Virus record (IMG/VR): IMGVR_UViG_2529293139_000011 | Length of the DNA: 40,519 nucleotides | Reading direction: 5' to 3' (one strand) | DNA from: a virus | Taxonomy: Duplodnaviria; Heunggongvirae; Uroviricota; Caudoviricetes | Part shown: one piece after another, positions 2,556-23,699 of the stretch | Position numbering within the stretch: position 1 is the stretch's first letter | How the letters are laid out: every line of letters starts with the position of its first letter | Position numbers and translations under genes: made by a program | The notes under the pieces: generated by a model | Told to the model about the DNA's origin: nothing | The model's input: the letters and a program-made list of their open reading frames with translations, nothing else | Database searches by the model: none

Positions 2556-2918
2556 ATGTTAAAGCTATTTGCAAAGTACACCTCGATTGGTGTGCTGAAC
2601 ACACTTATACACTGGGTGGTTTTTGGTGTATGTATCTATGCCGCGCATACAAACCAGGCTCTTGCAAACTTCGCAGGTTTCGTTGTGGCTGTGAGCTTTA
2701 GCTTCTTCGCGAATGCAAAATTCACATTCAAGGCATCGACTACAACGATGCGCTACATGTTATATGTCGGGTTCATGGGAACACTGAGTGCTACTGTTGG
2801 ATGGGCTGCTGATAGATGTTCACTTCCTCCAATTGTCACTCTTGTCACCTTCTCCGCCATCAGCCTGGTGTGCGGTTTCGTCTATTCAAAGTTCATTGTC
2901 TTTAGGGATGCGAAATGA
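2556..2918 (+). CDS. gtrA: Bactoprenol-linked glucose translocase (flippase) GtrA
   Basis: 120-aa small membrane protein ([25 protein letters not shown]...), first gene of a gtr operon; its stop overlaps the gtrB start. Confidence 0.85.
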
Positions 2919-3841
2919 AGATATCTCTTGTAGTTCCTGTCTTCAATGAAGAAGAAACGATACCAATTTTCTATAAAGCGGTACGTGAATTCGAAGAGTT
3001 GAAGCCATATGAAGTGGAAATTGTTTTCATAAATGACGGAAGCAAAGACGCTACGGAGTCAATCATTAACGCTCTGGCTGTTTCAGATCCTCTAGTGGTT
3101 CCGCTGTCATTTACACGAAACTTTGGTAAAGAACCAGCATTGTTTGCAGGGTTAGACCATGCAACAGGAGATGCTGTAATTCCAATTGATGTTGACCTGC
3201 AAGATCCGATTGAGGTTATTCCCCATCTGATTGAAAAGTGGCGGGCAGGCGCTGATATGGTGCTTGCTAAGCGATCAGACCGCTCAACCGATGGTCGTCT
3301 GAAGCGAAAAACTGCTGAGTGGTTCTATAAGCTCCACAACAAAATAAGCAATCCAAAGATCGAGGAAAATGTTGGTGATTTCCGGTTAATGAACCGTGAA
3401 GTTGTCGAAAATATTAAGCTCATGCAAGAACGCAACCTATTCATGAAGGGCGTACTGAGTTGGGTTGGAGGAAAGACTGATGTTGTAGAATATGTTCGCG
3501 CCGAACGCGTGGCGGGCAGCACTAAATTCAATGGCTGGAAATTGTGGAATCTAGCGCTTGAAGGGATAACAAGCTTTTCTACTTTCCCACTTCGTATGTG
3601 GACATATATCGGATTTGTTGTTGCAGCAGCTTCATTCTTCTATGGAGCATGGATGATTGCAGATAAAATACTCTGGGGAAATGAAGTGCGTGGTTACCCA
3701 TCGCTACTTGTCTCCGTACTGTTTTTAGGTGGAATTCAATTAATTGGAATAGGCGTGCTCGGGGAGTACATAGGCAGAATTTATATAGAGGTTAAGAATA
3801 GACCTCGTTATATCATAAAGGGCAATAAAAATGATATTTAG
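2915..3841 (+). CDS. gtrB: Bactoprenol glucosyltransferase GtrB (GT2 family)
   Basis: 308-aa [23 protein letters not shown]... with GT2 DXD-type motifs and C-terminal TM helices; overlaps gtrA and the following gene. Confidence 0.85.
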
Positions 3842-5510
3842 GAACAGACATACTCTTTTATCTATATTCGCTATTTTCATGTTGGTATTTCTTGTTGCAT
3901 TAAATACACCAATGCACTCTGATGACTATAGTTATTACTCACGAGGATTGGGGCTTGATGCGCACATTGCAAATTATATGCACTGGAGTGGGAGGATTGT
4001 AGCAGATTACGTATCTACCGGGATGTTGTCGATTGAGGATCATACCCTTAAGGCCCTCGTCAACTCTATAGGTGTAACATCACTTATTGTTCTCATTGCT
4101 GCAATACCTTCTCAATTATGTAAAGTTGAAATCAAACCATTAGTATTAATTGTTGTTTTTGCTTTATATTGGTCATGTAACCCAAATCTAGGACAGAACT
4201 CGTTCTGGGTTGTAGGAAGCGCGAATTACGCCTGGACTACACTATTTGTTTTATGTTTCATCTATTATTTTTTGAAGTGGATTGAAAACCAAAATACGAC
4301 TAAGATAGTTTCGTTATTTATTCTTGGTTTAATAGCAGGCTGCTCAAACGAAAATACCGCTGTAACTATAGCTCCATTGACAGTTGTTGTTGCAATCTCT
4401 TTATTTTACTTTAAAAAAATAAGATGGCAATATGCTTTATTACCAACGATCGGTGTCATTATTGGTTCTGTGACAATTATTCTTTCACCAGGAAACGCAG
4501 CAAGGGCGAAAAATATTGCGTTCGTTGATTGGTATGCAATGCCGTTAGGTGAGAGGCTAATAGAGCACTTTACTCATAGGTTTTGGTTTGCTTTCACATC
4601 CGCATGGCTTGTAATTGGGCTGCTGGTTATCTGTTCAATTGCATCATATGTTTTTTATCGAAGAAAACTACTTTCATTTTCTAATGCTTCATTATTTGCA
4701 TCAATCTCGTTTTTTGGGTGCTTCCTGCTTGCTAATGCCGCATTGGCTGGTGCTCCATACACTCCTCCGCGATCTTTTAGCATAGGGTTCTGTTTCCTTT
4801 TACTTTGCTTCTCCTGCCTTTTCACTTGGATAAATCAACAGGATGGCAAGATAAAAAGCACTTTATCTTACGCTATTTTATTAGTTTCACTAATTAATTT
4901 CATTGGCTCATATTATTTCGTTTATTCCGCTTATAAAAGAACAACGATCCAGCAGACACTTAGGGAGTCGTCGATTAGAGATGGTAGGAGCAATGGTTTG
5001 AAATCTATTTCTATCCCTGATTATTTCTTTACGCATCTTAAGAATTATAACGATAGATATGATAGATTTCATAATGAGGGAAGCTATGGCAGATACTATG
5101 GTATATCCAAAGCGCCATTACAAAAAGCAACCTTTGACTATTCTGGCATAGCATATAAACCAGTTTACAGTAAAGATGTGCCTCTATACGAGCGCGATAA
5201 TATCAAGTCTATTTTCATGTCACCGCAACAACCATTCATCAGTGGGACATTGATACTTGAGATTTCTAACAATATTGATGGGATTTTATCTCGTGATGGT
5301 GGCGTGAAAATCTTCTTACATATTTTAAAATCAGATGGAAGCATCGTTAACAAGGACTTTTTCCCAACTACTATAGAGCTTAATGGTAGATTCTATGCTG
5401 GAGTTGATCTTTCTGGAGTTGATATAAATGACATTAATAGCCTATTGATTGGTACATTCAATATTCATACGCGTCATCGATATACACAAACACAGATAAA
5501 GATTAATTAA
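3831..5510 (+). CDS. Serotype-specific O-antigen glucosyltransferase, GtrC-like (polytopic membrane N-terminal part plus a soluble C-terminal domain)
   Basis: 559-aa ORF in the third position of the gtr operon; strongly hydrophobic N-terminal ~380 aa, AT-rich codon usage typical of acquired gtrC genes; this family is highly variable so exact specificity is unknown. Confidence 0.65.
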
Positions 5511-22157: not shown

Positions 22158-22400
22158 TTATGCTCCTGTGGTGAACAGGTCTAACGCTTCCTTCGATTTA
22201 CGTACCGCTTCGATTGTGCGGGTCGTGATATCTGAATTAGCGCCGCCTGACTGGAAGTGAATTTTGAATAGCTCAAGCTTCAGCTCGTCAGTGCCAATAA
22301 ATTGAAATGCTTCCTCTGCGGCTGCGTTCTGGTTCATGACCAGCTTGTAAATCTCTAACTGGAATTTCTGTTCTTCAGTCATGGGAATAATCTCTGCCAT
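22158..22400 (-). CDS. Hypothetical protein upstream of the terminase genes
   Basis: 80-aa ORF, helical and acidic; no recognised family. Confidence 0.4.
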   Translation of the reverse strand: MAEIIPMTEEQKFQLEIYKLVMNQNAAAEEAFQFIGTDELKLELFKIHFQSGGANSDITTRTIEAVRKSKEALDLFTTGA

Positions 22401-22703
22401 TGTTGGCTCCGTTTATCCGTTAAAAGGGATATCAGTTAAGTTATCCCGTGTAGGGTATAAGCCATTGTCGAGACCACTCATTGAATGGTCTCTGCAATAA
22501 CCGATGTCTTTCCATCAGTCCGCCACCACAAAGAATCTTTTTTGCCATAAGGCAGGAGGTTCATCTTTCAGTGGCTGCCAGTGTTATTTCCCCACTTACT
22601 GGCTTGGGTTGTATCGCTGTACTGCCGTTAATTAGTAACCAGAAATTAACTCCGGTTTCATTATCAAGCCAACCCGTAGATAGGCTTTGTAATGCCTACA
22701 TGG

Positions 22704-23183
22704 TTAAATGATTTGCCAGTCTTCAGCCATCAGGTCGCCAATGGATGGAACCCATGTAGCAAGGAGGTTCTGTGAGTTTTTCAATACAAGCGTGTCATTG
22801 AAAGTTGGCTCGCCAACATATTCGCCAAAGCCATAACCCAACGCAGACGCTAATTTTTCCCCTTTCACGAGATAAACAAACTGGTCTTTCCCATTCCATC
22901 CTGCCCGCTGCAAACTTTTGCCCTGTTTTAACGCTTCCATGGCAAGGCCGAAACTTAGTCCTGATACCGGACGATAAGCCTTTTCGAATACTTCTTTTGG
23001 ACTCCAGCTAACGTAGCCATCAAAGCGATCGGTGTTAGGTTTTCCGCCATCCAGATATTCAACCAGATAGCCTTCGTCCTCGCCGTTTTCTCCGGCAGGA
23101 AGCTGCCAGCCACGAAAATCGTTATATGCCTGTCTCGTCATCGGAAAGGCGTTAATCAGTTTTACGCCAATATGCTGGGTCAT
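22704..23183 (-). CDS. DUF2829-domain protein (C-terminal half resembles the family that includes Thoeris anti-defence Tad2) with an N-terminal extension
   Basis: 159-aa ORF; the C-terminal region EALKQGKSLQRAGWNGK...WVPSIGDLMAEDWQII matches the DUF2829 pattern as I recall it (K.G....R..W, W.PS..DL.AEDW); lies between the lysis cassette and terminase. Confidence 0.5.
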   Translation of the reverse strand: MTQHIGVKLINAFPMTRQAYNDFRGWQLPAGENGEDEGYLVEYLDGGKPNTDRFDGYVSWSPKEVFEKAYRPVSGLSFGLAMEALKQGKSLQRAGWNGKDQFVYLVKGEKLASALGYGFGEYVGEPTFNDTLVLKNSQNLLATWVPSIGDLMAEDWQII

Positions 23184-23204
23184 AAAATTACCTATAGAGT
23201 TGGG

Positions 23205-23227
23205 AATAAAAAGCCCCGCATCGCGAG
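23205..23227 (-). terminator. Putative intrinsic terminator after Rz (minus-strand GC stem followed by CTTTTTATT)
   Basis: Minus-strand sequence CCTCGCGATGCGGGGCTTTTTATT immediately after the Rz stop. Confidence 0.4.
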
Positions 23228-23261
23228 GATCATTAAATTGACTTTGTGATTTGCAAAAAAA

Positions 23262-23699
23262 TTATTTCAGGCATTGCGTCCTGATGTACTCCTGCAGGTA
23301 GTTAACCTGCGCGGTTATCTTGTCGATTCCACTTCGGAGACGGTAATAATTGAGTTCAGCATCTGCTGTAAGTCCTGGGCTTTCTCCATCGCCCATGCTG
23401 CTGGCTCTGGCCGTTGACTTTGCACAGGTGGCGGCGACTTGCAGGCGCTTACGACCAGCAGAAACATCAGCACGGAGACTTTCGATAGTCGCGTTAGCAT
23501 CAGCAAGCTCCTTTGTATATCTGGCATCGAGTTCTGCTACATCACGTTGACGCTTCTGCATATCAGCGATGATGGATGTGGCCTTATCGCGCTGGTCTTT
23601 GTAGGCGATGGCGTTATCACGGTAATGATTAACAGCCCATGACAGGCAGACGATGATGCAGATAACCAGAGCGGAGATAATCGCGGTTACTCTGCTCAT
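23262..23699 (-). CDS. Rz: Inner-membrane spanin Rz
   Basis: 145-aa ORF with an N-terminal TM segment and coiled coil, immediately after the endolysin gene. Confidence 0.8.
23315..23500 (-). CDS. Rz1: Outer-membrane lipoprotein spanin Rz1, embedded in Rz in the +1 frame
   Basis: ORF 23315-23527; start placed at the internal ATG giving [25 protein letters not shown]...; lipobox VVSAC and Pro-rich tail. Confidence 0.65.

Follow-up and report, generated by a model that had tools for sequence, protein, structure and literature searches.

A 40,519-nucleotide (nt) stretch of viral DNA (Caudoviricetes; IMG/VR virus record IMGVR_UViG_2529293139_000011), hereafter called the window in its full length, is a P22-like Escherichia coli prophage and carries an ATG-started open reading frame (ORF) of 159 amino acids (aa) plus stop codon at 22,704-23,183 on the minus strand. 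We consider it quite probable that this gene encodes a two-module phage counter-defence protein, in which a C-terminal Tad2 domain is preceded by a small conserved domain (residues 1-74, here named N-dom). N-dom is a separate mobile module, and at least five or six different signal-sponge families have it among their most frequent fusion partners. The proposal draws on homology, the predicted fold, conserved pocket residues, the position in the genome and the pattern of fusions. Considered as a Tad2 homologue, it simply adds one more member to a well-known family; what appears to be new is the breadth of the association of N-dom with sponge families, and the N-dom-Tad2 pairing is a variant that has no prior functional study. 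An earlier note on this DNA, made from the sequence alone, quoted the same protein sequence and had placed a DUF2829 (Tad2-family) domain in its C-terminal half behind an extra N-terminal domain, naming comparison with Tad2 structures as a check.

The C-terminal Tad2 domain

In Pfam, PF11195 (Thoeris anti-defense 2-like) matches residues 77-159 and scores 76.9 bits where the cut-off is 25 (E-value = 1.8e-21), and the match spans profile positions 2-73 of 73. A phmmer search of the Protein Data Bank (PDB) led to SPO1 Tad2 (8wje, 8sme; E-value = 1.2e-25), which aligns gap-free with residues 75-159 and is identical at 41 of the 85 positions, as counted from the alignment. ModTad2 (9eib, E-value = 3.1e-18) and the Tad2 of entry 8v3e (E-value = 3.6e-18) were also matched, while SptTad2 and AcrIIA7/HgmTad2 presented weaker matches (for AcrIIA7, 8kbi with an E-value of 2.9e-6 and 9kzr with 1e-5). 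The contacts of SPO1 Tad2 with 1''-3' gcADPR are W25, N26, W73 and D79 (Yirmiya et al., 10.1101/2023.05.01.538930). They align with W96, N97, W144 and D150 of the present protein, and these four residues are invariant across 58 unique fusion proteins from IMG/VR. With three crystallised Tad2 proteins matched in sequence, the four ligand contacts conserved and a predicted fold that agrees with both ModTad2 and HgmTad2, the DUF2829 assignment of the earlier note stands.

SPO1 Tad2 (Gp34.65; 8SME/8SMF/8SMG, 8WJE) is the founding Tad2 sponge and resembles the present domain in its short insertion and its four gcADPR contacts. It bound gcADPR and none of the tested cyclic di- or trinucleotides, and the cyclic-dinucleotide binding of HgmTad2 was attributed to a much longer insertion between β2 and β5 (Li et al., 10.1101/2023.11.15.567273). 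The insertion found here (LASALGYGFGEYVGEPTF) is equal in length to that of SPO1 Tad2 (LASDFGFGFGEYINEPVF) and of the same type, which predicts a gcADPR-specific allele and a C-terminal module that would serve as a gcADPR-specific sponge against type I Thoeris. The two proteins differ in other respects, as SPO1 Tad2, which comes from a Bacillus myovirus, has 89 aa and a single domain, whereas the present one bears 74 additional N-terminal residues and belongs to a temperate P22-like coliphage, probably to its late operon.

Judging from its homologues, the Tad2 module would assemble as a homotetramer with two pockets between non-dimeric protomers, and these would enclose the TIR-made signal 1''-3' gcADPR (3'cADPR). 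Once the signal is enclosed, ThsA would never be activated and the abortive infection of type I Thoeris would fail. We infer tetramer formation, ligand binding and Thoeris inhibition by analogy with the characterised Tad2 proteins, and we regard it as most likely that this C-terminal module forms such a tetramer, sequesters 1''-3' gcADPR and thereby disarms type I Thoeris. Accepting the Tad2 annotation, this prophage and phages HZ41, Kapi1, Huey and N4 are predicted to resist TIR/Thoeris signalling.

N-dom and its conservation

Residues 1-74 lie outside the PF11195 match and so constitute the extra N-terminal domain described by the earlier note, which proved to be a module of its own. The AlphaFold2 (AF2) model of N-dom has a predicted local distance difference test score (pLDDT) of 94.7. 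No match was obtained in Pfam (E-value up to 10), NCBIfam or PADLOC. A PDB sequence search with N-dom returned chance-level matches only (best E-value = 0.57), its profile found nothing in the PDB, and Foldseek comparison of the model with the PDB gave nothing below an E-value of 1. PHROGs 9467 and 32732 match the N-dom part alone. Several candidate relationships were rejected. A relationship to DUF1653 was ruled out by an hhalign probability of 0.08% against a crAssphage DUF1653-like protein; TadIV-1 (T4 vs.3) is an unrelated helical dimer; and N-dom is not itself Lockin, Sequestin or Acb5, Lockin and Sequestin being fusion partners instead.

About 25-30 positions of N-dom are invariant or nearly so. 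Specifically, these include K8, M15, R17, Y20, N21, R24, W26, P29, E32 and D36 in the first half, and G38-Y-L-V-E-Y43, D45-G-G, N50, G56-Y, S59-W-S-P62, F66 and Y70 in the second, and the conserved residues are the same whichever partner domain is attached. Among the 58 unique N-dom-Tad2 proteins the mean pairwise identity was 0.76 for N-dom, a value inflated by the choice of this set on N-dom similarity, 0.71 for the Tad2 segment from helix α1 to GWNGK, 0.28 for the insertion and 0.58 for the C-terminal strand. A second set, consisting of the query and 66 proteins picked by full-length score, avoids that selection bias. Its values were 0.68, 0.71, 0.44 and 0.63, respectively (67 proteins), and with 0.68 against 0.56 for Tad2 overall N-dom is the more conserved part.

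Fusion partners of N-dom

When 1.84 billion cluster representatives were searched with a profile, 2,960 N-dom proteins were detected at an E-value of 1e-3 or below and 1,404 at 1e-10 or below, counted as representatives at 50% identity. Pfam partners in the top 147 representatives were Tad2 (50), Sequestin (41), Acb4 (15) and the Acb2/Tad1 hairpin (1), where PF13876 is Acb4 (Chang et al.) and PF21825 is Sequestin (Tal et al., 10.1101/2025.07.12.664507). The architectures given by our own hidden Markov models (HMMs) were ndom+tad2 (43), ndom+sequestin (29), ndom+acb4 (6), several three-domain arrays including acb4+ndom+sequestin, and 49 proteins without a recognised partner.

The fusion of N-dom with Tad2 is represented by the present gene, N4 gp49, Kapi1_043 and Huey CDS0064, and is a common architecture, since thousands of metagenomic proteins share it with N4 gp49. 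A crAssphage protein joins N-dom to Acb4, Axy13_069 of an Achromobacter phage combines N-dom, Acb4 and Sequestin, and P0171, P0196, P0204 and P0236 carry N-dom with Sequestin. In Table S1 of Tal et al., presumably their list of Sequestin homologues, the GYLVEY motif occurs 85 times, and all passages inspected had N-dom followed by a helical C-terminal domain. Two proteins of their Table S4 join N-dom to Lockin (hhalign 97.6%, E-value = 3e-12); residues 131-211 of P0354 match PDB 9p8l, 'Lockin', with an E-value of 6.8e-17. Apart from these, N-dom is fused to an RyR-domain protein in Yersinia phage TG1.

Another relative is RyR Tad, gp68 of Pectobacterium phage vB_PatP_CB1, whose C-terminal RyR-like domain sponges 1''-3' gcADPR (Fedorova et al., June 2026 preprint, 10.64898/2026.06.04.730250). 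Judged by sequence comparison, the N-domain of gp68 is homologous to N-dom (hhalign 96.9%, E-value = 2e-10; BLASTP 34% identity over 67 aa, E-value = 8e-6). It is a divergent member in which the DGGKPN loop is missing, as are several of the present subfamily's invariant residues. Both proteins have N-dom followed by a gcADPR sponge domain. The sponge of RyR Tad is all-helical and RyR Repeat12-like, in a dimeric protein, whereas here the C-terminal half is Tad2; the two proteins have the N-domain only in common, and the C-terminal RyR Repeat12-like helical domain that characterises RyR Tad is missing from ours. [quoted passage not shown]

Short, phage-borne and fused to known sponges, N-dom has these three of the general properties of phage signal sponges (Tal et al., 2025). 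We found no paper describing its fusion pattern, which appears to be unreported. The Pfam search of Tal et al. was directed at families fused to Tad2 or Acb4 (10.1101/2025.07.12.664507), and because N-dom is in no curated family library, Pfam-based searches for sponge fusion partners could not find it.

Following the same fusion logic, C-terminal partner domains without annotation (e.g., in P0254, P0326 and P0366) are candidates for further sponge families. Ten partner-less N-dom proteins with C-terminal extensions had no Pfam match. C-terminal domains of 70-130 aa follow N-dom in P0254, P0290, P0253, P0326, P0366, P0321, P0318, P0353 and L008:2501-3046, the last being gp06 of Rhodoferax phage P26218. 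Pfam scans of gp06 and of the other proteins just listed, P0290 excepted, gave no match. A PDB search of P0254, P0313 and P0366 gave a match for P0313 only. In this protein of 230 aa N-dom is C-terminal and the preceding region resembles a putative NTP pyrophosphohydrolase (PDB 3nl9, E-value = 4e-5), which indicates that N-dom is not always N-terminal and that its partners are not only sponges. N-dom is also encoded alone, by genes for about 73 aa that lie beside ribonucleotide reductase and glutaredoxin genes, beside a helix-turn-helix gene, or between terminase subunits; in the N4-like phage phiEaP8 the stand-alone gp22 adjoins the virion RNA polymerase.

Weighing of the possible functions

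Very conserved and recurring on many unrelated sponge domains, N-dom is an autonomous domain that may aid assembly or have a second target. We tentatively put forward that it is a widespread phage immune-evasion module with its own target, which is possible and would explain why it is the commonest partner shared by Tad2, Sequestin, Acb4, Lockin, RyR Tad and Acb2/Tad1 domains, as well as its stand-alone genes and its conservation above that of the attached sponge domains. Candidates for such a target are a further immune signal, a metabolite that is cationic or derived from NAD, an enzyme or effector of signalling, or a sponge-sensing guard system such as Panoptes. Several observations weigh against this proposal or against the two-module protein as a whole. 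The only experiment on an N-dom homologue found no apparent anti-Thoeris I activity for residues 1-86 of gp68 alone (10.64898/2026.06.04.730250), and N-dom has a net acidic charge, with 11 acidic and 8 basic residues, whereas the interface pockets in which homo-oligomeric sponges bind an immune signal are positively charged. Tad2 specificities vary widely and some homologues inhibited no system tried (Hadary et al.). No characterised Tad2 carries N-dom, which is found in none of the 18 homologues tested by Hadary et al., and tetramer assembly or the pockets could be altered by its presence. Moreover, late-operon expression, as we infer it below, would be an unusual timing for an anti-defence gene. 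That N-dom is an anti-signalling module, which either sponges a different signal or inhibits an immune protein that signals or senses sponges, is nevertheless a serious possibility short of an expectation. The protein would then combine two inhibitors in one, as the Acb4-Tad2 and Acb4-Sequestin fusions do, which is compatible with the Tad2 reading of the C-terminal half. Pasteurella phage Pm86 Acb4-Tad2, Tad2-Sequestin and Ab09 gp59 Acb4-Sequestin are likewise modular, built of small oligomeric anti-signalling domains and located in phage hotspots, but both of their modules have a demonstrated ligand and N-dom has none. This function agrees with the existence of stand-alone N-dom genes, with the range of partners (Tad2, Sequestin, Acb4, Acb2/Tad1, Lockin, RyR Tad), with the place of N-dom between two sponge domains in acb4+ndom+sequestin, with residues conserved independently of the partner and to a higher degree than the attached Tad2, and with the discovery of Sequestin by the same fusion logic (10.1101/2025.07.12.664507). 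Against it stand, apart from the gp68 result and the acidic charge, the stand-alone copies outside sponge islands and the fact that no solved ligand-bound structure resembles N-dom. A purely structural accessory, that is a dimerisation or domain-swap scaffold which stabilises, solubilises or cross-links sponges without a target of its own, is also possible, if somewhat less likely. It suits the domain-swapped and singly inactive homologue in RyR Tad, the usual position N-terminal to oligomeric sponge domains, and the AF2 model, which sets N-dom confidently beside helix α1, the helix that interlocks the Tad2 tetramer. A pure scaffold is not expected, however, to be a frequent stand-alone gene in unrelated contexts, nor to keep its near-invariant positions, which are largely polar or aromatic, in phages of Proteobacteria, Bacteroidota (crAss-like) and Clostridium, and RyR Tad works without the domain. 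With its own target N-dom would represent a large new family of immune antagonists; as a scaffold it would show how phages assemble multivalent sponge proteins.

Concerning the Tad2 domain, its main or additional ligand might be His-ADPR, N7-cADPR, cUMP/cCMP or cyclic dinucleotides, with type II or IV Thoeris, Pycsar or CBASS as the system countered. Homologues can reach type II and IV Thoeris and Pycsar (Hadary et al.) and can bind cyclic dinucleotides, for which some use a second pocket; ModTad2, a strong match here, binds His-ADPR, and the insertion is hypervariable among alleles. We consider this unlikely, given that the closest characterised relative, SPO1 Tad2, binds gcADPR and no other cyclic nucleotide tested, that the insertion is gap-free against it and of the same type, and that the gcADPR pocket residues are intact. 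It is very improbable that the protein is an AcrIIA7-type anti-CRISPR, although AcrIIA7 is itself a DUF2829 protein whose structures were weakly matched and the Huey homologue bears an anti-CRISPR label. E. coli carries type I CRISPR systems and is not known to carry those of the Cas9 type (type II), which counts against this function. HgmTad2 (= AcrIIA7) failed to inhibit SpyCas9 in vitro and in vivo on retest (10.1101/2023.11.15.567273), and DUF2829 proteins have been argued to be anti-Thoeris (Yirmiya et al.).

Genomic setting

The gene belongs to PHROG 872, which covers the full length of the protein (E-value = 5.6e-69). Phage HZ41 has the gene with 99.4% identity and E. coli prophages have it with 99%; its annotation in E. 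coli genomes is 'DUF2829 domain-containing protein'. A 751-nt query with the gene and its flanks was covered to at least 80% in 32 of 5,426 complete E. coli genomes. Megablast placed the region in 366 phage records, mostly of Escherichia and Salmonella P22-like or lambdoid phages. The features around the gene are listed in Table 1.

Table 1. Coordinates in the window of the N-dom-Tad2 gene, its domains and adjacent features.
Feature	Position	Strand	Basis
N-dom-Tad2 fusion protein, complete coding sequence	22704..23183	-	ORF list; PHROG 872
N-dom, residues 1-74, conserved small alpha/beta domain	22962..23183	-	AF2 model; homology to RyR Tad gp68 N-domain
Tad2 domain, residues 75-159, short SPO1-type insertion at ~107-130	22707..22961	-	Pfam, PDB matches
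Conserved 303-nt non-coding spacer, 3' of gene, before DUF2560	22401..22703	-	Phage record comparison, RNA folding
DUF2560	22158-22400	-	Pfam
Terminator-like hairpin + T-run, between Rz stop codon and N-dom-Tad2 start	23204..23228	-	Consensus scan
Rz (PF03245)	23262-23699	-	Pfam
Rz1-like ORF embedded in Rz	23315-23527	-	ORF list

The order on the minus strand is Q, holin, endolysin, Rz, the N-dom-Tad2 gene, the spacer, DUF2560, small terminase and large terminase. The slot between Rz and DUF2560 is variable among P22-like relatives, where Rha, GIY-YIG, HNH or other genes are established, in agreement with the moron-like position between lysis cassette and terminase genes that the earlier note had pointed out. 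The terminator-like hairpin it had placed after Rz is likewise present at 23228-23214, as a consensus match only, with six pairs (five G-C) followed by a T-run; four terminator-like sites in the region compare with 1.8 +/- 1.3 in shuffled sequence and are not statistically exceptional. A weak Shine-Dalgarno sequence (AGG) lies at 23191-23193, 7 nt 5' of the ATG. Between Rz and the ATG, the consensus scan revealed nothing promoter-like on the minus strand, which makes read-through from the late operon likelier than autonomous moron expression. The gene is thus probably transcribed with the Q-antiterminated late operon.

Spacer, neighbouring sponge genes and alleles

Conservation of the spacer amounts to 80-99% across 207 phage records; P22 is among them and has it between ORF201 and ORF80. 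Its RNA folding against shuffled sequence gave z values of -5.6 (minus strand) and -4.6 (plus strand), and Rfam gave no match. A structured RNA is one possible reading of the spacer, a series of hairpins at recombination or terminator boundaries another. The idea that it is an rha/ORF201 remnant was dropped, as the matching P22 segment is almost wholly 3' of ORF201 and non-coding. In six of the closest relatives (L013-L015, L020, L022 and L025, at about 3669-4090) an Acb4 ORF of the PF13876 type occupies an insertion of ~410 nt in the middle of the spacer. Its site corresponds to ~22480-22503 of the window, which is without the insertion, and the N-dom of these Acb4-carrying relatives is 99-100% identical to the present one. 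Sponge genes are therefore gained and lost in this slot.

A separate Acb4 gene was located within 3 kb in 27 of 80 related IMG/VR loci and a Sequestin gene in four of the 80; our HMMs detected no further sponge-like ORF in the window. In phage Huey an Acb4 gene comes after N-dom-Tad2 within this slot. The region from Rz to terminase in P22-like phages is thereby marked as a locus for anti-signalling genes, with room for Tad2 alleles and Acb4. Huey CDS0064 (Tad2-type) and CDS0066 (Acb4-type) are both automatically labelled 'anti-CRISPR protein', labels overtaken by later work, since both families are signal sponges.

Three alleles are found in P22-like coliphages, of 159 aa (here and in HZ41), 166 aa (Huey CDS0064, L002:997-1497) and 173 aa (Kapi1_043, L005:1501-2022). 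They share an identical or nearly identical N-dom, helix α1 and C-terminal ...AEDWQII, and their Tad2 insertions are unrelated. Kept ends with unrelated insertions point to recombination inside the N-dom-Tad2 gene, which would diversify the part of Tad2 that sets secondary specificity. The insertions of Kapi1_043 and Huey CDS0064, which occupy the same slot as the present gene, are longer than the one found here and, by analogy with HgmTad2, could form a second pocket for cyclic dinucleotides.

N4 gp49 (YP_950527.1; PHROG 872 family) has the same N-dom and Tad2 architecture in 160 aa, and we found no paper characterising it. Its N-dom is 54% identical to residues 2-73 of the present protein, its Tad2 insertion is different, and it is located in the N4-like anti-signalling hotspot by the virion RNA polymerase. 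In the N4 locus (L004:3109-3962) Acb4 (gp48, RefSeq numbering) stands directly before gp49, beside that polymerase. As the Acb4 family PF13876 was named after 'N4 Gp49', gene numbering differs between sources.

Pfam matches in the window comprise an integrase, a GtrA / GT2 / DUF6056 cassette, a tailspike with P22 head-binding domain, the Q antiterminator, Rz and DUF2560. A tRNA gene at 1009-1080 adjoins the integrase and is probably the attachment site; the parts of the window concerned are 1009-1080, 1209-2402 and 2556-5510. Finally, the GtrA / GT2 / DUF6056 cassette is placed between integrase and tailspike and looks like an O-antigen-modifying serotype-conversion module.

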